64,000 bases of DNA from Clostridia bacterium (GTDB lineage: Bacteria > Bacillota > Clostridia > Oscillospirales > CAG-272). The position numbers and the translations under genes are program-made. Every line of letters begins with the position of its first letter. Position 1 is the stretch's first letter. The notes below the pieces were generated by a model, which saw only the letters and a program-made list of their open reading frames with translations, made no database searches and was not told where the DNA came from. The stretch covers positions 25,944 through 89,943 of the forward strand of contig JAFUOQ010000016.1 of the NCBI GenBank assembly GCA_017472695.1, given 5' to 3'. This document shows, in pieces, positions 4,712 through 32,696 of the stretch.

Positions 4712-5716
4712 ATGCGTATTACAAACAAGATGAGGAAAAAAGCTCTTGCCTCTGTTGTTAGTTATTTAAACGAGGTTGGCACTGCTACCCGCAACCAAAT
4801 AATTGACGGAGCCTTGATTCATTATGGTCTTACAAAAAAGGAGCTTGATGATTTTTCTCCAAAAAGCAAGAATACTATTATAAGAAGCTATATCGGCACC
4901 GCCCTTAATGATTTAATGAACAAAAAGGATATAAAGCGTTTAGGAGATAGCTATTCTCTTGCCAAGGAGGAGCTTGTAATTATTCGCGAGGACGAATGCG
5001 AAACCAAAATCAAAGAGATTTTAGAGCTTGGCTCGTATGTCAAGGAGGAAATTTTCCAAAGGCTTGAAAAATATTTTGGAACTGGCGCAACGCTTTCCTT
5101 CAAGGACGATTACAATCTTCGCTCAATAGCAGGCAATGTGCTATTTAATTTAGTTGACAGTGGTGAAATTGAGCTTGTGGGTGGAAAATACTCGTCAAAG
5201 GCATCAAGCGATTACGAAATTTACGACACTCCTCTACCTGAAAACGAGTTCAAGCCGAAATTCTTTAAGGCTCTTTGGCTTATGGGAGGAAAGTTTTTTG
5301 AGAGCTTTGTTGCCAATCTTTTAGAAAAGTATTATACTCTTTCCGGACAAATGGTTGTTTACTGCGACATAACAGGTGGCAGTGACGATGGTGGAATTGA
5401 CATAATTCTTGAAACTGTAGACTATCTCGGCTTTGGCGAAAAAATAGTTTCTCAAACCAAGTGCAGAGACACAGCTCATGTCACAGAAAAAGAGGTGCGT
5501 GAGTTCTATGGTGCTATGAATGCTGTTGGAGCTACACGTGGGATTTATGTGACCACTACTCATTTCCACACTAGTGCTGAATATTTTTTAGACTCGGTAA
5601 GTGACCTGGTTGGTGTTGATGGCGAAAAGCTTTTTGAGCTTGTCAAAAAGACAAGATACGGAATTAAAAAATGCGAGGGTGGTTACACCTTCGATACTGC
5701 AATTTTTACAAGATAA
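4712..5716 (+). CDS. Mrr-like restriction endonuclease domain protein (N-terminal winged-helix-like region + C-terminal Mrr_cat)
   Basis: 334 aa. The C-terminal part has the Mrr catalytic pattern GGSDDGGIDIILE ... VSQTKCR ... followed by GIYVTTTHFHTSA. Strong SD (GGGAGGG). Confidence 0.7.
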   Translation: MRITNKMRKKALASVVSYLNEVGTATRNQIIDGALIHYGLTKKELDDFSPKSKNTIIRSYIGTALNDLMNKKDIKRLGDSYSLAKEELVIIREDECETKIKEILELGSYVKEEIFQRLEKYFGTGATLSFKDDYNLRSIAGNVLFNLVDSGEIELVGGKYSSKASSDYEIYDTPLPENEFKPKFFKALWLMGGKFFESFVANLLEKYYTLSGQMVVYCDITGGSDDGGIDIILETVDYLGFGEKIVSQTKCRDTAHVTEKEVREFYGAMNAVGATRGIYVTTTHFHTSAEYFLDSVSDLVGVDGEKLFELVKKTRYGIKKCEGGYTFDTAIFTR

Positions 5717-17607: not shown

Positions 17608-17809
17608 GGCGTGATACTCTTATCGGAGTATCACGCCAGTTCTATTCGCCTGCGGCGAGTGATATTGCTACGCAGTGATATTTGGCTTACGCCGAGTGGT
17701 ATTCGCTACGCGAGTTTGAAAGGCGAATAGAATATCACTGAAGCCGCAAGGCTTCAATATCATTATTGCTGCAGCAATAATATCACTCCGACGAAGTCGG
17801 AATATAACT
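17608..17809. repeat. Convergent array of 9-mers (AGTGATATT x3, then AATATCAYT x4) interleaved with GC-rich mini-hairpins
   Basis: Read directly. AGTGATATT at 17658, 17674 and 17695 (variant). Reverse complement AATATCACT/AATATCATT/AATATAACT at 17731, 17756, 17779 and 17801. Perfect hairpin 17608-17637. 11-bp outer stem 17640-17650 / 17722-17732. Confidence 0.8.
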
Positions 17810-17853
17810 CTTGTTTTCTCTGCCGATTTGTGTTATAATGGGGCTAATCAAAA

Positions 17854-17975
17854 GCCTCCCTTGTGTAAAGGGAGGTGGCAGCCGAAGGCTGACGGAGGGA
17901 TTGTAAAAAAGCCCAAAACATCAGAAAACAATCCCTCAGTCGCTAACGCGACAGCTCCCTTTACACAAGGGAGCC
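17854..17975. mobile_element. Cargo-less (MITE-like) copy of the inverted-repeat element that carries DUF559 at 29987-30432
   Basis: Two ~48-51 nt arms in inverted orientation (17854-17904 and 17928-17975) separated by only 23 nt. Each arm is made of two mini-hairpins and is near-identical to the arms at 29987-30035 / 30381-30432. Confidence 0.7.
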
Positions 17976-27078: not shown

Positions 27079-28323
27079 TTAGATTTTATGTATTAGCAAG
27101 CCACTACGAAGCTTTGGCTCGAACCAAGTAGACTTTGGAGGCATAACATCTCCATCATCCGCAACTGCCATTAAATCATCTAGTGAGGTTGGATACATAG
27201 AAATTGCCATTTTCATATCCTTATTGCATCTTTCCTCTAAATATTTAAGACCTCGAATACCGCCTGCAAAATCAATACGTTTATCTGTTCTTGGGTCACC
27301 TATTCCTAAAATGTCTGACAAAAGGTATTTTTGCAAAATTGCACAGTCAAGACGTTCAACTGCCTTACTTGATGAGCAAAGCTCCTTGTAAAACTCGAGC
27401 TTGTACCATTTTTTGCCCACATAAATACCAACAGTATGCTTCTTTTCTGGGCGATATTGTCCCTCTCCCTTATATTCAGTAAGAGTGCCAATCTTTTCCT
27501 CTAGAATTTTGAGAAAATCCTCTACCCTGTGTCCGTTTAAGTCCTTTAAAAGTCTATTGTAGTCAAGAATTTTAAGGGTAGATGCTGGGAAAATTACAGA
27601 GAGGAAGTAGTTAAACTCCTCGCTTCCATTATAGCTTGGGTTTTCTTTTCTCCTCTTTACTCCTACCTTAACAGCGGATGCACATCTATGGTGACCATCT
27701 GCAATATATAATGCATCAAGAGATGCAAATGCGGACTCAATTTTCTTATCAACCTCATCATTTGAGGTAGTCCAAACAGTATGTCTTACTCCATCCTCGG
27801 CAACAAAATCATAAAGTGGAGCTTTTTTAGTTTCTTCATTTATAATTTCATCAAGCGCTACACTATTCTTATATGCCAAAAAGATTGGACCTGTGTGTGC
27901 AGAGCAAGTATCAACGTGCCTAATTCTATCCAGTTCCTTATCAGCTCTAGTAAACTCGTGCTTTTTAATTCTATTCTCCAAATAATCGTCAATTGAGGCA
28001 CAACCAACAATTCCTGTTTGGCTCTGCTCACCCATTATTTGGCGATAGAAATAATATCTTTTTTTCTCGTCATTTATGTAAATACCATCGCTTTCAAATT
28101 TTTCAAGCATTTCCTTGGCGGTATTATAAACAACATCACTATAAATATCTATACCCTTTTCCAGGTTTATCTCCGCCCTGTCAATTCTCAAAAACGAGTA
28201 AGGGTTATCCTTTACCATTTCTCTTGCCTCAGAGCTTGACATTACGTCATATGGCAGGGCTGCACATTTTTCAACCAACTCGCACGCCGGTCTTAACGCA
28301 TTAAAAGGTTTTACTGTAATCAT
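27079..28323 (-). CDS. DUF1015 domain protein
   Basis: 414 aa. The N-terminus MITVKPFNALRP and ADGHHR motif are typical of DUF1015. Confidence 0.8.
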   Translation of the reverse strand: MITVKPFNALRPACELVEKCAALPYDVMSSSEAREMVKDNPYSFLRIDRAEINLEKGIDIYSDVVYNTAKEMLEKFESDGIYINDEKKRYYFYRQIMGEQSQTGIVGCASIDDYLENRIKKHEFTRADKELDRIRHVDTCSAHTGPIFLAYKNSVALDEIINEETKKAPLYDFVAEDGVRHTVWTTSNDEVDKKIESAFASLDALYIADGHHRCASAVKVGVKRRKENPSYNGSEEFNYFLSVIFPASTLKILDYNRLLKDLNGHRVEDFLKILEEKIGTLTEYKGEGQYRPEKKHTVGIYVGKKWYKLEFYKELCSSSKAVERLDCAILQKYLLSDILGIGDPRTDKRIDFAGGIRGLKYLEERCNKDMKMAISMYPTSLDDLMAVADDGDVMPPKSTWFEPKLRSGLLIHKI

Positions 28324-28439
28324 TTTTTACCTCTTATAAAATTATTTTAACTCTTTTGTTGCACTACACTTTAAGTATATAGCTTTTTTTATTTATTGTC
28401 AATATTTTATATAAAAAGAGGGTGCTTGCCCCTCTTTTA

Positions 28440-29681
28440 TTATTCTATAGTGATATTTTCCTCTGGTGGCTCTTCTTCCTTTTGTGCCATTTGTAGTGCT
28501 CTTTTTGTTTCTCTTGCTATTTCTCTCTTTTTCTTTGCCTTTGTTAAGCAAATTTCAAGCCCGATATAGAAGCAAAGTGAAATTAGCATTACCATATAAT
28601 AACTTAAAAGTCTCCAAACAAGCATAACGCCATTTGCAGTAGCTATTGCACCTGTGGTTGTGCCAGCAATGAACACTATAATTGATGTAAATATTTTACC
28701 TGATGAGCCCTCGGCAGCACCAGATGCACCAGGAGTTGGAATAAAGCCAACGGCGGTAATTGCAAAGGATGTGCCTGCTATCGAAAGAAGCAAATGCTCT
28801 GCACCTGCATTTACATTTAGTGACAAGAAAATAAAGAATGATGCGGAATAAAGGAAAGCAAAGGAGATTATCTTAGTTAAAAGTGCAAGGAAAAAATGTC
28901 CCTTTTTACTCATCAAATCCTTAAACGCCTGTTGAACATTTTCAAAATATTCCTTCAAGCTTTCTGCCTTTGGTCTTAAAAACTTAAAAATCTTAAAATT
29001 GCAAAGGAAATAAACTATTTTAACAAGCAAGTTTCTTACGGTTTTGCTAAGTCCCAAAACCAATGTAGAAACAAACATTACAAGGTTAAGTATATAACCA
29101 ATTATTATAATTATTTTCCAAGTGATATCAATTTGGTCAAACAAGGTTTCAGCAAAGAAAAGACCTGTGAGTGAAAAGCCTGTTGTAACCGCCATATAAA
29201 TAAGGAGGTTGGCAAGCAATAGTCCTGTAGACTCGGAAATTTTAACCTTTGCCCTTGAAAACGAGTAAGCTTGGAATGGCTGACCGCCTGTTGAAAGAGG
29301 GGTGATGCCATTGAAGAAATGCTCTGTCATTGCAATAGCATATGTGGTTCTAAACTTAACCTCTGTCCTTCTTGCCTTTGCTAAAATACATAAGGAAAGT
29401 GGATAAATAGCTAAATATATAAGAACCATCAAAATTGCTAGTAGAACAAATTCTATTCTAACAGTCTTTAGCTGATCAATTATACTTGGAAAATCGTTGA
29501 AGGATAAGACAGTAACGAGAAGCAATGCACCAATAATGCCATAAAGAACAAAAAGAGCAACTTTTTTGCCGTTCATTGGGTTCTTTTGTTTTTTGCCGTG
29601 AATATCTATAATTTGTGTTTCTTCTAATGAAACATTTTCAAGTTCTTCAATGGAAAAGCTTTCTTTTTCTTTTTTCTTCAT
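28440..29681 (-). CDS. Flippase-like / lysylphosphatidylglycerol-synthase TM-domain (UPF0104) family membrane protein
   Basis: 413 aa polytopic membrane protein. PLSTGGQPFQAY and PTPGASGAAE motifs are characteristic of the UPF0104/TIGR00374 family. Confidence 0.75.
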   Translation of the reverse strand: MKKKEKESFSIEELENVSLEETQIIDIHGKKQKNPMNGKKVALFVLYGIIGALLLVTVLSFNDFPSIIDQLKTVRIEFVLLAILMVLIYLAIYPLSLCILAKARRTEVKFRTTYAIAMTEHFFNGITPLSTGGQPFQAYSFSRAKVKISESTGLLLANLLIYMAVTTGFSLTGLFFAETLFDQIDITWKIIIIIGYILNLVMFVSTLVLGLSKTVRNLLVKIVYFLCNFKIFKFLRPKAESLKEYFENVQQAFKDLMSKKGHFFLALLTKIISFAFLYSASFFIFLSLNVNAGAEHLLLSIAGTSFAITAVGFIPTPGASGAAEGSSGKIFTSIIVFIAGTTTGAIATANGVMLVWRLLSYYMVMLISLCFYIGLEICLTKAKKKREIARETKRALQMAQKEEEPPEENITIE

Positions 29682-29986
29682 ATTCTACTCCTTTCCTTAT
29701 TTTAAAAAATCACTACTATTTTAGCACAAATTTTTTCTATATGCAATATATATTATGAATTTTAATAAAATTTAACAAAATATTGTATTTTTGGTGAATT
29801 CGTCAACAAAAATGAGCCGAATAGGGTTGTACCCTATAGGACAGTTTTCCAAAATACGGCATATCTCTTTTGAGATATGCCGTATTTCGCGTTTGTGTCC
29901 ACAAATGCAGTGCTTCGTCTGTATTAACTAAAGACTACAACAAAATTACGGTTATTTTGATATGCGAAAAGTCCGCACAAATCAAA

Positions 29987-30432
29987 GGCTCCCTTGTGTA
30001 AAGGGAGCTGTCAGCGAAGCTGACTGAGGGATTGTTCTACGAGGTGATCAATATATTCACAAACACCTCGAAAGTTTTTATGTATTTCCGTATTCGGTAT
30101 TCTGATAACCATCAATCCGTATTCTTCAAGAAAAGCGGTTCTTTCTTCATCATATTGCTTTCCTTTCTCGGTATAATGTCCTGAGCCGTCAAGCTCTATA
30201 ATAAGCTTTGCCTCTGCACAGTAAAAATCCGCAATATGCCTTCCGAGAACCTTTTGGCGTGAAAAACGAATGGGATAGGTGCGCAAAAAATCATACCAAA
30301 GGTGCTTTTCTTCTTTGGTCATATTCTTTCGTAGCATTTTAGCAGTGAGAACTATGTCTTTATTATGTTTTCTCTGCATTACAATCCCTCCGTCACGCTT
30401 TGCGTGCCACCTCCCTTTACACAAGGGAGGCT
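29987..30432 (-). mobile_element. Inverted-repeat-bounded cassette carrying a DUF559 endonuclease gene
   Basis: Arms 29987-30035 and 30381-30432 are inverted copies of the same two-hairpin sequence seen at 17854-17975. The DUF559 ORF fills the space between them exactly, with its stop codon inside the left arm. Confidence 0.7.
30011..30379 (-). CDS. DUF559 (Vsr/restriction-endonuclease-like fold) domain protein
   Basis: Typical DUF559 sequence LRKNMTKEEKHLWYDFLR...RFSRQKVLGRHIADFYCAEAKLIIELDGSGH. I start at the ATG at 30379 (MQRKHNKD) because the 15 codons upstream are the translated repeat arm. Confidence 0.85.
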   Translation of the reverse strand: MQRKHNKDIVLTAKMLRKNMTKEEKHLWYDFLRTYPIRFSRQKVLGRHIADFYCAEAKLIIELDGSGHYTEKGKQYDEERTAFLEEYGLMVIRIPNTEIHKNFRGVCEYIDHLVEQSLSQLR

Positions 30433-30509
30433 TTTGCTGATTAACACCTCAGTATTTCTCAATAAATGGAAATTTGACAATCTTCATATGATGTTTTCTG
30501 TTTTTAACC

Positions 30510-31001
30510 TCAATAAATAAACCGCTTCAACCATTCCGGCTGTTCTTCAAGAGCAGCATATAATTTTTGTAGTGTTCTTTTCCCAATGCGCCTATCTAAA
30601 ACCGCAAACATTCTAACAATAGGATGACTTGAAAAAATGCTCTCCTGTATGTCTTGATTGCGATATATTTCTAAAGCTTCGCAAAATTCCTCATCTGTAT
30701 ATTCCGTACGTTGATTTATAGGATATTTCTCCAACAATGTCCAAAACTCTGCCCAGTATTCACCAATACCGCTTGGATTTGCATTTTTCGTATATCCACT
30801 ATCAATAAAATAGGTATTCACGGTTTCCCAAGAGAAACGTTTTACTTGCTTGCCATCTATGGAAACCTCAAAAATATGACAACCGTCCATTCCTACGTAT
30901 GTGGTACAACCATATCTTAATTTGCCTTGTAGTGAATTGGCAAGCATATCTTGTTCAAGATACTTTCTCATTCCGCTCCATGAACCAAGTATTTTCCCCA
31001 T
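30510..31001 (-). CDS. Hypothetical cytoplasmic protein (163 aa)
   Basis: ATG at 31001 is preceded by GAGGAGGTG (the ORF-track start at 31040 lacks an SD). Family not confidently recognised. Confidence 0.55.
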   Translation of the reverse strand: MGKILGSWSGMRKYLEQDMLANSLQGKLRYGCTTYVGMDGCHIFEVSIDGKQVKRFSWETVNTYFIDSGYTKNANPSGIGEYWAEFWTLLEKYPINQRTEYTDEEFCEALEIYRNQDIQESIFSSHPIVRMFAVLDRRIGKRTLQKLYAALEEQPEWLKRFIY

Positions 31002-31170
31002 AAAGAACACCTCCTCGTAAAATTCGTATTTATCCGTCATACACTTATGCTACTATTATAACACAAAAACCGCAGAAAATCAATCTGCGGTTTCTGCTTT
31101 TCTGTCGGTAGGTAATGTATTCCCAAAACTGTCCTTTAGAGTACCGCTCTATAGCATCGGCTCTTTTTTA

Positions 31171-31974
31171 TTATAAAACGGCATTTAAAAATTGCTTTGT
31201 TCTTGGGTTTTGTGGGTTATCAAAAATCTCGGTGGGCGTGCCCTCTTCGGCAATCATGCCCTCATCCATAAACAAGACTCTTGTAGCTACCTCACGGGCA
31301 AAGCCCATTTCGTGTGTAACTATAACCATAGTCATACCCTCGTCGGCTACCTCTTTAATAAGGTTTAGAACCTCGCCAACCATCTCGGGGTCAAGCGCCG
31401 AGGTTGGCTCGTCAAAAAGCATAACCTTTGGGCTCATAGCGAGTGCCCTAACAATAGCGACTCTCTGCTTTTGTCCACCTGACAAGGTCGATGGATATAC
31501 ATTCGCCTTATCTTCAAGACCTATACGGCGAAGAAGCGCGAGTGCATTTTGACGACACTCCTCTTTAAATTCCTTTGCACTTTTGCCCTCTTTTTTTACC
31601 TTTTTCTTATTAAGCGTATAAGGTGCTATCATTATATTTTGAAGAACGGTTTTGTTGTTAAAAAGATTGAACTGCTGGAAAACCATTCCAATTTTTTGTC
31701 TGTGCTTGTTTATATTAACCCTTTGATCCGCCAAGTCCTCTCCGTCAAAGATGATAGAACCGCTAGTTGGATCCTCTAAACAATTAAGGCATCTTAAAAA
31801 TGTACTCTTGCCTGAGCCTGACGGGCCAATTACAACAACCTTTTCACCCTTATATATATCAGTGCTTATACCCTTTAGAACCTCGTTAGAGCTGAATGCT
31901 TTTTTCAGATCATATACTGAAAGTATTGGCACTTGAGAGACGCTTGATGAAGTAAAACCTATATTTTCCGCCAT
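31171..31974 (-). CDS. Polar amino acid ABC transporter ATP-binding protein
   Basis: 267 aa with Walker [10 protein letters not shown], signature LSGGQKQR and Walker [13 protein letters not shown]. GlnQ/ArtP-like. Confidence 0.92.
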
Positions 31975-32696
31975 TATTTTGCGCCTCCTTTTCTATCGCT
32001 TTTAGAAAGAGCCTTCTCCAAAAGTCTTATTAGCTGAGTGATTATAAATATCATTACAATATAGCAAATTGCCATGAAGAGATATGGAACCATTGGCTCG
32101 TAGTTGTTTTGTCCAATTTTTGTAAGAGCCACATACAAGTCCATTGCACCAACGAAGCTAATTACAGAGGTTTCCTTAATCAATGAAATGAACTCATTTC
32201 CCAAGGATGGTAAAATGTTTTTAACAGCCTGCGGAACAACAAACCTAACCATAGTTGAGGCATAGCTAAAGCCAAGCGCACGACCCGCCTCTAGCTGTCC
32301 CTGGTCTACCGAATTTAATCCGCCTCGCATCACCTCGGAAACATATGCCGCGCTATTAAGTCCAAATATAACCACACAAACATTTTCCTCGGAAATTCTG
32401 CCAAGACCTATAAGTGGTAATATAACAAAGTAGCCAACAAGAAGCTGAACTACTATTGGTGTACCTCTAAAAAATCCAACGTAAAGTCCACAAATTTTAT
32501 CTAATATTCTTGGAAAAACCTTGTACTTTGGCATAACACGAATAGTAGCAATTACCGTACCTAAAATTACACCTATACAAAGTCCTAATATTGCAATTTT
32601 TAATGTGTTTCCAAGACCCTCTATAACCTCTTTATAGCCACCATCGAAAATAAAGGATTCTATAAATTTTGATATCTTGTTGCCAAAAGATCCCAT
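31974..32696 (-). CDS. Polar amino acid ABC transporter permease
   Basis: 240 aa. The EAA-loop-like EAGRALGFS motif is typical of HisM/GlnP-type permeases. Its stop overlaps the ATPase start (TAATG). Confidence 0.9.

Follow-up and report, generated by a model that had tools for sequence, protein, structure and literature searches.

A putative homing-like DUF559 nuclease gene carried in a dispersed triplex-motif repeat of Clostridia

In a stretch of 64,000 nucleotides from a Clostridia bacterium (hereafter the window), a 122-aa open reading frame (ORF) of the DUF559 family is bracketed by two inverted arms of approximately 50 nt. Judged from their sequence, the arms are class II purine-motif intrastrand triplex motifs of the BoxC/PIT/TM_ECO kind, in a form whose loop 2 contains an additional hairpin. 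The first-pass annotation could name no described element family with such arms, but a known kind exists in BoxC/PIT/TM_ECO (PMC4666352). Our verdict on the cassette is a selfish, homing-like nuclease in a triplex-motif repeat, a variant of already known kinds.

Inspection of the sequence and a repeat finder both revealed the arms at 29987-30035 (plus strand) and 30381-30431 (minus strand) as inverted copies of each other (inverted repeat I1: 30 nt, 90% complementarity; I3: 15 nt, 93%), as initially described, except that the right-hand border had been set at 30432, where a flanking T-run that abuts the arm begins (30432-30435; an A-run in the sense of the gene). Read from outside to inside, the 5'-type arm lies on the minus strand and the 3'-type arm on the plus strand, and the parts come in the order P1 (a hairpin), P2 (a mini-hairpin with loops of the C(GNA)G type) and a purine segment mirroring the P1 purine strand. 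In the 5'-type arm, P1 is located at 30410-30430 (CCTCCCTT/gtgta/AAGGGAGG), P2 at 30394-30406 (CACGC-AAA-GCGTG) and the third-strand segment at 30384-30391 (GGAGGGAT, then TTGT), all on the minus strand; the corresponding plus-strand positions in the 3'-type arm are 29988-30008 (GCTCCCTT/gtgta/AAGGGAGC), 30012-30022 (CAGC-GAA-GCTG) and 30025-30032 (TGAGGGAT, then TTGT). Folding of single arms agreed with the two hairpins and shared tail noticed at first reading, yielding two hairpins and an unpaired GAGGGATTGT tail (dG -13 to -14 kcal/mol; z -5 to -7; as-good folds in 0 of 200 shuffles). The tools used consider Watson-Crick and wobble pairs alone and leave the third segment unpaired.

The DUF559/YcjD-family ORF occupies 30011-30379 on the minus strand (Pfam DUF559, E=1.3e-28) and lies in an intergenic position outside any intron. 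Its stop codon (30011-30013) is within the left arm, as had been stated, and the 3' arm encodes the last eight codons plus the stop; the ATG (30377-30379) is 1 nt, rather than the reported 2 nt, away from the right arm. GGAGGG in the 5' arm doubles as a Shine-Dalgarno sequence 6 nt upstream of this ATG. In DUF559 annotations the arms lead to mis-called start codons, and they may play a part in the abundance of very short metagenome contigs bearing DUF559.

DUF559 proteins are predicted PD-(D/E)XK/Vsr-like nucleases (PMC1189080) and form a very large family, with more than 8000 homologues retrieved in one search. The window protein retains all family-invariant residues (D51, F52, E62, D64, G65, H68, D77, R80, R93 and N96), and comparison between cassettes indicated purifying selection (pN/pS 0.06-0.17; pS 0.37-0.73). 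A profile search matched 3HRL at 1e-35 and the homing endonuclease I-Bth0305I (3R3P) at 6e-5. Foldseek with the AF2 model (pLDDT 76.8) gave the I-Bth0305I catalytic domain 3R3P as top match (TM 0.77), with 3HRL also at the top and Vsr lower. The Vsr/restriction-endonuclease-like fold previously ascribed to the protein is thus supported by profile and predicted structure alike, and so is the suggested likeness to homing endonucleases, the nearest structural match of the model being a genuine one. The model places the window DUF559 among the Vsr-like nucleases, with I-Bth0305I as the type (EDxHD) it resembles (Dassa 2009, PMC2677866; Taylor 2011, PMC3239194), with the acidic and histidine residues conserved (D51, E62, D64, H68, D77). 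I-Bth0305I, however, is a multidomain protein with a large DNA-binding region, encoded in a group I intron of phage recA, whereas Pfam and the model indicate for the window protein a bare 122-aa domain without a separate DNA-binding domain, encoded in an intergenic repeat element. PADLOC and PHROGs returned nothing for it beyond weak generic nuclease-domain matches, and an exact-sequence protein look-up found no record.

The triplex character of the arms was evaluated by covariation in 165 unique arms, followed by 96 new unique arms as replication, scoring P1 against the third segment by the purine-motif code (G·GC, A/T·AT, T·CG). Consistency in register was 97.1% and 98.1%, respectively, compared to 39-53% in shifted register for the first set and 38-53% overall, and mutual information between P1 and the third segment was confined to the antidiagonal. 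Diverged subfamilies obeyed the triplex rule with different sequences, and each of the eight triple positions co-varied somewhere across the superfamily. The two arm types differ at the basal triple, which is G·GC in one and T·CG in the other; a T·CG triple in the antiparallel motif was reportedly described by Beal & Dervan in 1992 and by Dittrich et al. in 1994. C(GNA)G loops sit on the outside-to-inside strand in both arms, and this strand was the more stable fold in 101 vs 38 arms (p~1e-17). Together, the strand asymmetry, the C(GNA)G loops and the purine-motif code point to a fold of DNA rather than RNA. RNA reportedly does not form triplexes of the purine motif (PMC4666352), and we judged a reading at the RNA level unlikely given the lack of orientation bias, the symmetric use of both strands and the purine-motif code.

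The minimum free energy structure of a whole gene-less element predicts pairing of one arm with the other, in which the type-specific bases produce fixed mismatches. Variant arms altered all three strands jointly, and the partner arm shared the variant in 0 of 27 cases. These mismatches and the independent variation of partner arms favor separate folds, and arm-to-arm pairing (as a long hairpin or four-way junction) was therefore rejected as the selected structure. Rather than ordinary transposon terminal inverted repeats, as one option of the first-pass annotation would imply, the arms appear as strand-asymmetric, independently folding intrastrand-triplex motifs. We infer that the triplex folds in vivo. 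Once single-stranded, the outside-to-inside strand would form the 8-bp pyrimidine/purine hairpin P1, the very stable C(GNA)G mini-hairpin P2 would serve as connector, and the purine tail GGAGGGAT would fold back antiparallel on the P1 purine strand in reverse-Hoogsteen triples; the inversion of the arms would provide one such fold per DNA strand. For TM_ECO, triplex formation occurs in vitro, and DMS footprinting by Holder et al. revealed no triplex in vivo (PMC4666352).

Alternatively, the arms might serve the host in regulation or insulation, as bidirectional intrinsic terminators, stabilisers of mRNA ends or a 5'UTR/3'UTR pair that controls translation, with DUF559 as an ordinary repair gene that happens to make use of them. 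In the plus-strand reading, P1 of the 5' arm and the T-run at 30432-30435 form an outward terminator-like site, and on the minus strand P1 of the 3' arm with TTTGATTTG resembles a terminator for the DUF559 transcript; terminator scoring called the outer hairpins and T-runs at both ends outward-facing terminators on both strands. In most family members the 5' arm is bordered on its outer side by AAA and the 3' arm by TTT, and solo P1 hairpins with A- and T-runs also occur. Elements are intergenic, with ten between convergent and four between divergent gene pairs. In their pattern, these properties and the arm-supplied Shine-Dalgarno sequence agree in part with the terminator/UTR alternative raised in the first-pass annotation, but they leave the mirror covariation unexplained. 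Neither P2 nor a tail covarying with P1 is needed in a terminator, orientation relative to co-directional genes is unbiased (11 vs 9), and C(GNA)G loops with a purine-motif code suit DNA and not RNA. Moreover, PIT elements displayed neither terminator nor promoter activity in E. coli (PMC4666352), and a regulatory role does not account for the pairing of DUF559 with such motifs in unrelated phyla (see below). We thus regard a purely regulatory role as improbable. As part of a selfish homing cassette, DUF559 would still depend on one arm for ribosome binding and on the other for termination.

In the window, the 19-nt outer-hairpin core was counted four times (0 expected by chance), and the two extra matches identify a second, ORF-less element at 17854-17975 (plus strand), composed of a 5'-type arm (17854-17904), an A-rich interior of 23 nt (17905-17927) and a 3'-type arm (17928-17975). 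Compared to the DUF559 copy, its P1 and third strands are identical, while its P2 stems differ and still pair. This element had been overlooked in the first reading of the window. The family is large in gut and rumen Clostridia, with the core present in at least 120 genomic and at least 90 viral stretches, and most copies are palindromic doublets of ~125 bp. Among 56 paired elements, 53 combined one 5'-type with one 3'-type arm, and three contained DUF559. In ~48 pairs the interior measured -1 to 60 nt, and a length of 344-345 nt was restricted to the three DUF559 copies; interiors of 21-23 nt in gene-less elements share a loose consensus of their own. The family thus has the traits of the repeat class, being multi-copy, intergenic, without strand bias, and present in solo and palindromic-doublet forms. 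Far from being confined to one fixed DUF559 locus, as the alternative considered at the outset would have it, the arms are dispersed and mostly gene-less, and across different genomes the cassettes themselves have at least three unrelated sets of neighboring genes. An Rfam scan of 28000-32500 (E<=10) gave no relevant match.

Inverted, terminal arms, a majority of short gene-less copies and the occurrence of copies on viral contigs are also what would be expected of a MITE or other non-autonomous transposon whose terminal inverted repeats are moved in trans by a DDE or other transposase, with DUF559 as passenger. A 12-nt direct repeat around the insertion at locus L128 agrees with this, and the first-pass annotation had suggested looking for target-site duplications, but no duplication was common to 47 elements and no copy had an adjacent transposase. 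Neither are the gene-less interiors deletion remnants of the ORF 5' end (local alignment score 5.33, vs 5.76 for shuffles), and the independent variation of arms combined with internal three-way covariation would be needless for transposase-binding repeats. DUF559 further remains associated with the motifs across phyla despite differing arm sequences. Transposition of a MITE type is accordingly very improbable.

Homology between cassette copies begins at the outer arm ends, and identity of the flanks is at random level, which confirms the cassette as a discrete unit; arms are 94-100% and ORFs 75-88% identical. The earlier description as "framed exactly" needs a small correction, as a conserved module of ~90 nt beyond the 3' arm accompanies the element at five independent loci. 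In the window this downstream module spans 29852-29908, with a perfect 16-bp hairpin at 29852-29887 (AAATACGGCATATCTC/GAGATATGCCGTATTT) and a palindrome at 29889-29908 (GCGTTTGTG..CACAAATGC). It is also found at L128 and L078 (gene present), L139 (gene-less) and L112 (solo hairpin), 85-137 nt past the 3' arm.

Presence and absence of the gene were evaluated at related loci. At L139, an SF0329 orthologue (94% identity) is followed downstream by a gene-less element; the comparison with the window is anchored on one side only, as the right-hand similarity is the shared downstream module. Most other SF0329 orthologues were non-syntenic, leaving L139 as the sole informative case from this source. 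The GDPD/HAD intergenic region measures 44 nt when empty and ~700 nt when filled; here the insertion (L128) comprises 644 nt, thus exceeding the cassette, and is flanked by the 12-nt direct repeat. The polymorphism that the first-pass annotation suggested looking for is hence represented by one gene-less counterpart anchored on one side and one empty site whose insertion is larger than the cassette. Presence/absence polymorphism of a selfish gene would be a further likeness to I-Bth0305I. Loci L137 and L138 are the same locus and 100% identical, revealing no polymorphism between them, and identical DUF559 proteins recur at the same locus across samples. High synonymous divergence (pS 0.4-0.7) along with identical proteins at a fixed locus gives no sign of recent movement. 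A metagenome scan with the neighboring LPG-synthase retrieved six distant loci, all without arms.

DUF559 genes adjoin similar motifs beyond Clostridia. Around 13 distant DUF559 genes, hairpin-plus-mirror motifs reached 1.72 per kb, compared to 0-0.08 per kb in controls; the hosts were Deinococcus, cyanobacteria and Proteobacteria. The motifs often formed inverted pairs on either side of the gene, with differing arm sequences. These findings speak against the idea that DUF559 is random cargo. The DUF559-linked motifs of Deinococcus, Azospirillum and E. coli have loops of 2-7 nt. In E. coli, ycjD is followed downstream by two direct TM-like copies and has a 19-bp hairpin over its start codon, without exact inverted framing. 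E. coli strains lacking ycjD do not display a simple empty site, as an efflux (TetR/RND) island replaces the region instead. YcjD of E. coli and NGO0050 (PDB 3HRL) belong to the same family as the window protein (DUF559, PF04480). Literature searches covering the arms, DUF559, ycjD and intrastrand triplexes turned up no account of a gene-repeat link, and to our knowledge YcjD and NGO0050 have not been discussed together with flanking repeats.

Earlier work on BoxC/PIT is said to include that of Bachellier in the 1990s and of Hoyne & Maher in 2000. The clostridial arms resemble BoxC/PIT/TM_ECO in having pyrimidine, purine and mirror-image reverse-Hoogsteen domains in this order on one strand (class II purine motif), and in being multi-copy, strictly intergenic, free of strand bias and often arranged as inverted ("palindromic") doublets. 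They differ in sequence (CCTCCCTT... vs CCCTCTCCC... in TM_ECO), in comprising two distinct arm types, and in host group, as Clostridia are unmentioned in PMC4666352. Loop 1 has 5 nt, but loop 2, which holds P2, a mini-hairpin conserved in structure and variable in sequence, has 15-25 nt and exceeds the loop lengths of ITxF (1-6 nt) and of Hoyne et al. (0-10 nt), so that an ITxF search would miss these arms. A further difference is the DUF559 nuclease gene between the arms, to which the pairing in other phyla, including ycjD of E. coli, is similar; Holder et al. (2015) found no mobility-related genes near TMs, and described BoxC/PIT/TM repeats as associated with locally variable regions (PMC4666352).

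On balance, we lean towards a selfish endonuclease gene that occupies the central loop of a palindromic, dispersed element and homes into the gene-less copies. DUF559 would most likely recognise and cut these copies, with either the folded arms or the palindrome that their inner ends create (GGGATTGT...ACAATCCC) as its target; similarly, I-Bth0305I cuts a pseudopalindromic site as a homodimer (PMC2677866, PMC3239194). Repair templated by a gene-bearing copy, for which the conserved arms provide the homology, would then introduce the gene, making the repeat family and not one host gene the homing target, and gene loss would leave doublets or solo hairpins behind. Both the action of DUF559 on the arms and its spread by break-induced gene conversion are proposed here. 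Elements with and without the gene lie within 12 kb of each other in the window and within 3 kb at L095, indicating that any homing is inefficient or currently off. The -1 to 60 nt spacing of gene-less interiors does not sit easily with a dimeric enzyme that reads the two inner ends together, and the multiplication of the gene-less elements themselves is outside the explanation of the homing model.

Such multiplication is central to a reading after the REPIN/RAYT systems, in which a single-copy, largely vertical and host-associated DUF559 would generate, maintain or disperse the repeats without homing itself. In both systems the enzyme gene is flanked by inverted short structured repeats that are dispersed as solos and doublets folding on single-stranded DNA, and here, too, the gene is bracketed by inverted copies of a doublet whose gene-less form is far more numerous. 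The identical proteins at a fixed locus across samples, the old divergence with strong purifying selection, and in E. coli the one copy of ycjD at one locus vs 23 copies of TM_ECO (PMC4666352) would fit as well. However, close cassettes occupy different gene contexts in different genomes, and the gene is missing from the element by the SF0329 orthologue and from a GDPD/HAD site that is syntenic in other respects. Unlike simple hairpins, the repeats here are triplex motifs, and the enzyme is a Vsr-like hydrolytic nuclease (Pfam DUF559 only) rather than an HUH Y1 transposase; a PD-(D/E)XK-type hydrolytic nuclease alone is incapable of HUH cut-and-ligate chemistry, and the nearest structural match of the model is a homing endonuclease. 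We therefore consider a REPIN/RAYT-like role unlikely.

The presence of intrastrand triplex repeats in E. coli has been on record since the 1990s, and since 2015 the count of genomes with such repeats has exceeded 260; we know of no function, origin or associated enzyme for them. We tentatively propose, as a possibility with the odds somewhat against it, that DUF559/YcjD proteins are the missing protein partners of the BoxC/PIT/TM triplex repeats across phyla, acting as structure-specific triple-helix nucleases and constituting together with the repeats a class of mobile or selfish system that has so far escaped recognition. If true, homing or propagation of the repeats would be "triplex-guided", and the genomic instability reported at TM sites would find an explanation as well. 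Covariation evidence of the kind presented here is usually obtainable only for RNA structures; the clostridial arms provide it, in natural form, for a DNA triple helix, with three-way substitutions including T·CG. The pairing of DUF559 with triplex motifs in Clostridia, Deinococcota, Cyanobacteria and Proteobacteria ties together two orphan problems and makes both testable.

The first-pass annotation had described a DUF559 endonuclease gene framed by inverted-repeat arms, and inspection of the sequence (29700-30750), the repeat finder and Pfam all confirmed this arrangement, with both arms seen as annotated. The repeat finder called the left arm at 29987-30035 (plus strand) and the right arm at 30381-30431 (minus strand); between them, on the minus strand, lies a 122-aa ORF (ATG 30377-30379, stop 30011-30013; Pfam DUF559, E=1.3e-28). 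As had been claimed, its stop codon falls within the left arm; its ATG, previously placed 2 nt from the right arm, lies 1 nt from it. Single-stranded DNA folding yielded for each arm an outer 8-bp hairpin with a GTGTA loop (P1) and a 5-6-bp mini-hairpin with a GAA, AAA or GTTA loop (P2), followed by an unpaired tail, GAGGGATTGT (arm z-scores -5 to -7). The 19-nt core of P1 occurs four times in the window versus zero expected occurrences, and the two further matches make up a second, gene-less element (17854-17975) in which the two arm types lie 23 nt apart without an ORF. Forty nt left of this element, at 17640-17810, we observed an array of the 9-nt unit AATATCACT (three reverse copies, then four forward) whose spacers are 14-16-nt mini-hairpins with GCAA, TGCA or GAA loops; the array as a whole has a fold z of -4.9, and its pattern was found nowhere else within the 64-kb window. 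The assigned start of the DUF559 ORF (30011-30424 in the window; 4719-5030 in the compared locus L137; database proteins P0002, P0008, P0011 and P0094) varies among gene callers, the alternative lengths being 103 aa (internal ATG), 122 aa and 137-171 aa. The longest forms read through the 5' arm (peptide CKGRWHAKRDGGIV), and arm sequence produces spurious N-terminal extensions of DUF559 database entries.

To our knowledge, no member of the DUF559 family has been characterised so far. The residues invariant among 14 DUF559 proteins (34-69% identity) are all kept in the window protein (D51, F52, E62, D64, G65, H68, D77, R80, R93 and N96). Against solved structures, the profile of these 14 sequences matched the Neisseria DUF559 protein 3HRL (1e-35), the homing endonuclease I-Bth0305I (3R3P; 6e-5) and PvuRts1I (~0.009). 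The best PDB match of the AlphaFold model (pLDDT 76.8) was the catalytic domain of I-Bth0305I (E 3e-4, TM 0.77), followed by 3HRL, Vsr-like RAP domains, PvuRts1I/AbaSI and Vsr. As a homodimer, I-Bth0305I cleaves a pseudopalindromic site (PMC3239194), and an early prediction placed YcjD-like proteins among the PD-(D/E)XK/Vsr relatives (PMC1189080). Across four cassettes, pN/pS was 0.06-0.17 at a pS of 0.37-0.73, indicating a functional protein and old copies. Homologues numbered more than 8000; the best 120 of them share 82-95% identity, are mostly 122 aa long and lie mostly on contigs of 0.5-1.5 kb.

Searched for exact matches to the P1 19-mer, species-representative genomes yielded at least 120 stretches, and the hosts of the matches listed were nearly all MAGs of gut or rumen Clostridia (Oscillospiraceae, Acutalibacteraceae, Faecousia, 'Eubacteriales'); the 19-mer was also present on at least 90 IMG/VR viral contigs. 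The genomic loci among the matches listed comprised 184 complete arms and 56 convergent pairs, 53 of which combined one 5'-type arm (GCCTCCC...GGGAGGTGG...ACGGAGGGATTGT) with one 3'-type arm (GGCTCCC...GGGAGCTGT...ACTGAGGGATTGT). Within these listed pairs, approximately 48 of 56 had an interior of -1 to 60 nt, four had one of about 100 nt and one pair had 263 nt; only the three DUF559-bearing copies (window, L033, L095) had interiors of 344-345 nt. Comparison of the gene-less interiors revealed no ORF remnants, and P2 is hypervariable among gene-less copies. The elements sit between genes, with unbiased orientation relative to the flanking genes (co-directional 11 versus 9, convergent 10, divergent 4). 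Solo P1 hairpins with A- and T-runs at their sides accounted for about one fifth of the core matches listed. One of them, in L112 (245-280), reads AAAAAGCCTCCCTT-TACAC-AAGGGAGCCTTTTTT and consists of the left half of a 5'-type arm and the right half of a 3'-type arm; it looks like either a whole element collapsed by recombination between CTCCCTT direct repeats or an ancestral bidirectional terminator. On the viral contigs (L175-L264), most arms stand alone (only 20 convergent pairs, against 147 complete arms), and no gene for DUF559 was found; phages or prophages may carry or spread single triplex motifs. At L019 (1700-2600), at least four elements and partial arms are densely packed around a truncated DUF559 pseudogene (53 aa, 75% identity), which looks like a graveyard or a hotspot of nested insertions. 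At L111 (1907-2650), a DUF559 gene of 64% identity adjoins the upstream gene without a 5' arm; after it come two elements with interiors of 101 nt and 263 nt that have common ends, a further kind of interior.

Alignment of 165 unique arms revealed three segments that change together, namely the 5' pyrimidine strand of P1, its 3' purine strand and the inner tail. The co-varying sets were, in this order, CCTCCCTT/AAGGGAGG/GGAGGGAT, GCTCCCTT/AAGGGAGC/TGAGGGAT, GCCCCCTT/AAGGGGGC/TGGGGGAT, CCTCCCCT/AGGGGAGG/GGAGGGGT and CCCTCCTT/AAGGAGGG/GGGAGGAT. This inner tail mirrors the P1 purine strand and is not complementary to it. Tails were scored by the antiparallel triplex code, in which G lies over G-C, A or T over A-T and T over C-G. 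In the 165 arms, 97.1% of in-register positions obeyed this code, versus 39-53% after shifts of 1-2 nt, and 96 new arms from viral contigs independently gave 98.1% versus 38-50%. Mutual information between purine strand and tail was confined to the antidiagonal (0.96, 0.36, 0.37 and 0.08 bit). Since the arm detection patterns were biased to consensus tails, any detection bias counters this covariation signal. A de novo scan for a hairpin plus mirror third strand returned 258 sites versus 82 in a direct-repeat control, including diverged subfamilies that obey the rule with different sequences in the same three-segment layout (CCTTCTCC/GGAGAAGG/GGATGAGG, CCTCTCCT/AGGAGAGG/GGAGTGGT, CCTCCCTC/GAGGGAGG/GGAGGGAG); all eight triple positions co-vary somewhere in the superfamily. 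Judged from these patterns, each arm bears the signature of a putative intramolecular purine-motif triple helix. For variants at triple positions 3 and 7, the partner arm was discordant in 14/14 and 13/13 cases, and all three strands had changed coordinately in 11/14 and 11/13 variant arms, respectively; the two arms of an element are independent units. An inter-arm four-way junction, suggested by the MFE fold of the whole element, is opposed by the variants never being common to both arms.

The arms also revealed which strand folds. P2 is free to vary in sequence, with pairing always kept, and on the outside-to-inside strand of both arm types C(GNA)G triloops predominate among its loops (GAA 24, GTA 12, GCA 10 and GGA 9 of about 146), plus GTAA and GTTA. 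GNA triloops with a C-G closing pair are classic hyper-stable DNA mini-hairpins (Hirao, Yoshizawa). In 101 arms the outside-to-inside strand is the more stably folded of the two, against 38 arms in which its complement is (Wilcoxon p~1e-17), and the outside-to-inside strand alone satisfies all eight triples, the T*AT and T*CG positions having no equivalent on the complementary pyrimidine-motif strand. Folding of the left arm would thus use the top strand and that of the right arm the bottom strand, which an RNA transcribed in one direction could not do; RNA does not form purine-motif triplexes according to Holder et al. (PMC4666352). These sequence features argue that the folded strand is DNA, with both strands in use.

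Comparable repeats are known. In 2000, Hoyne and Maher gave the BoxC repeats of E. coli a new description as potential intrastrand triplex (PIT) elements; these correspond to TM_ECO of Holder et al. 2015. MG1655 has 23 copies of this 37-nt motif of the class II purine type, which is intergenic in every case and without strand bias (PMC4666352). Intrastrand triplex motifs occur in more than 260 genomes, notably of Enterobacteria, Cyanobacteria, Neisseria and Pseudomonas, at times in 'palindromic' inverted pairs, and are linked with locally raised rearrangement; the TM_ECO triplex formed in vitro and was not detectable in vivo (PMC4666352). The text of that study mentions neither DUF559, endonuclease, ycjD, Clostridia nor Firmicutes. 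Its search admitted loops of 1-6 nt (PMC4666352), whereas the second loop of the Clostridial arms, unlike that of TM_ECO-type motifs, spans 15-25 nt and contains P2, which would have put these arms outside its reach. Among the known intrastrand-triplex repeats, the Clostridial arms form a new variant.

Sequence-identical DUF559 proteins came from the same locus in different samples, and related proteins from different gene contexts: LPG-synthase/DUF559/SF0329 (window, L137, L138), MgtC/DUF559/GH36 (L121) and GDPD/DUF559/HAD (L128). The same arms frame the gene at equal distances in all three. Between cassettes, arms are 94-100% identical and ORFs 75-88%, so that constraint on the arms far exceeds that on synonymous sites; identity of the 120-nt flanks is at the random level (52-65%), and homology between cassettes thus begins at the arm ends. 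With three gene contexts, this bears out the earlier description of a discrete, mobile-looking unit. Both arms, including P2, are near-identical among gene-bearing copies. In L139, downstream of a 94%-identical SF0329 orthologue, an element whose 23-nt interior lacks the ORF shares with the window the left junction and an identical 3' arm and differs in the P2 of the 5' arm, in a comparison anchored on one side only. In L167 and L168, convergent GDPD and HAD genes lie 44 nt apart with a plain bidirectional terminator; in L128 this gap is ~700 nt and contains a 644-nt insertion with a 12-nt direct repeat on both sides (GACTTGTCCTCG), which is the 3' half of a terminator hairpin. A downstream module of ~90 nt (window 29852-29908, 85-137 nt beyond the 3' arm) recurs at L128 (3430-3500), L139 (1940-2010), where it constitutes the right-side similarity to the window, L078 (100-175) and, after the solo hairpin, L112 (310-380). 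It comprises a palindrome (GCATTTGTG..CACAAATGC) and a 16-bp hairpin (AAATACGGCATAyCTC/GAGATATrCCGTATTT). Since these five independent loci share the module whether DUF559-bearing, gene-less or solo hairpin, it travels with the elements and the mobile unit can exceed the arm-to-arm cassette; the module may be part of a longer element form. The MgtC/GH36 cassette (L121, 2788-2999) carries two identical 5' arms, one 161 nt upstream of the other; this tandem duplication, which includes the spacer, is kept across samples L122-L127.

The pairing of DUF559 with triplex motifs reaches beyond Clostridia. A tblastn search of plasmid records brought up DUF559 genes from Deinococcus, cyanobacteria and alpha-, beta- and gamma-proteobacteria, at 33-45% identity. 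The Deinococcus proteolyticus gene has 56-nt inverted arms at both sides (95% complementary), ordered as hairpin CCTCCCCC/GGGGGAGG, 3-nt linker, mirror GGAGGGGG and mini-hairpin; that of Pseudanabaena has nested inverted arms, CCCCCC-AGAATT-GGGGGG-CTA-GGGGGG. Rule-consistent motifs lie at DUF559 gene ends in Synechocystis, Sphingomonas, Azospirillum, Photobacterium and Neisseria, and two TM-like copies lie directly downstream of E. coli ycjD. Under strict criteria (perfect 7-bp hairpin plus 7-nt rule-consistent mirror), 13 DUF559 genes yielded 15 sites in 8.7 kb (1.72 per kb; 8/13 loci positive). Among the controls, a 50-kb stretch from a Deinococcus plasmid had 0 such sites, a stretch of equal length from an Azospirillum replicon had 4 (two gene-less doublets), and the 64-kb window had the four known arms only. 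Polarity varies by taxon, P1 being gene-proximal in Deinococcus and distal in Clostridia.

At L037 (3400-4000), a DUF559 gene of 61% identity lies within another arm subfamily (CCTCTCCT-GCTA-AGGAGAGG ... GGAGTGGTTAT), which suggests that protein and arms co-diversified; elements there are joined tail-to-head by a constant TCTGA linker. On Deinococcus plasmids (L153, L157, L163), cassettes lie between genes of aromatic-catabolism clusters (hpaB/oxidoreductase, oxidoreductase/hpaE, paaD/paaZ), positions typical of a selfish insertion obliged to spare genes. In E. coli, a perfect 19-bp hairpin ends on the ycjD start codon (L154, 436-485), and the 41-nt TM-like piece downstream has several further matches in each genome. 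The gene occupies one locus, the sapF-fabI interval, in 3378 of 5426 complete genomes; in one ycjD-less strain (L266, compared with L265) a TetR/RND efflux island fills this interval.

In the best-supported reading, a selfish nuclease gene would reside in the loop of a triplex-motif doublet, borrowing the arm's GGAGGG as ribosome-binding site and the distal P1 with its T-run as terminator, and would persist by being transferred now and then, in a homing-like way, to elements that lack the gene. The near-identical arms and P2 of gene-bearing copies fit co-conversion or cognate recognition; against homing-like transfer speak the coexistence of gene-bearing with nearby gene-less copies, the inconstant spacing of gene-less interiors and the long-ago divergence of the copies. 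A serious rival is a REPIN/RAYT-like relationship, in which the nuclease upholds or disperses the repeats, while a purely regulatory role of the arms or a classical MITE explains much less. The selfish, homing-endonuclease-like cassette of the first-pass annotation would be retained in part, with the arms recast as a triplex-repeat variant and the gene as their recurrent partner, not arbitrary cargo. We found no literature report of an association between DUF559 and triplex motifs; this link across phyla is apparently undescribed and is open to direct test.
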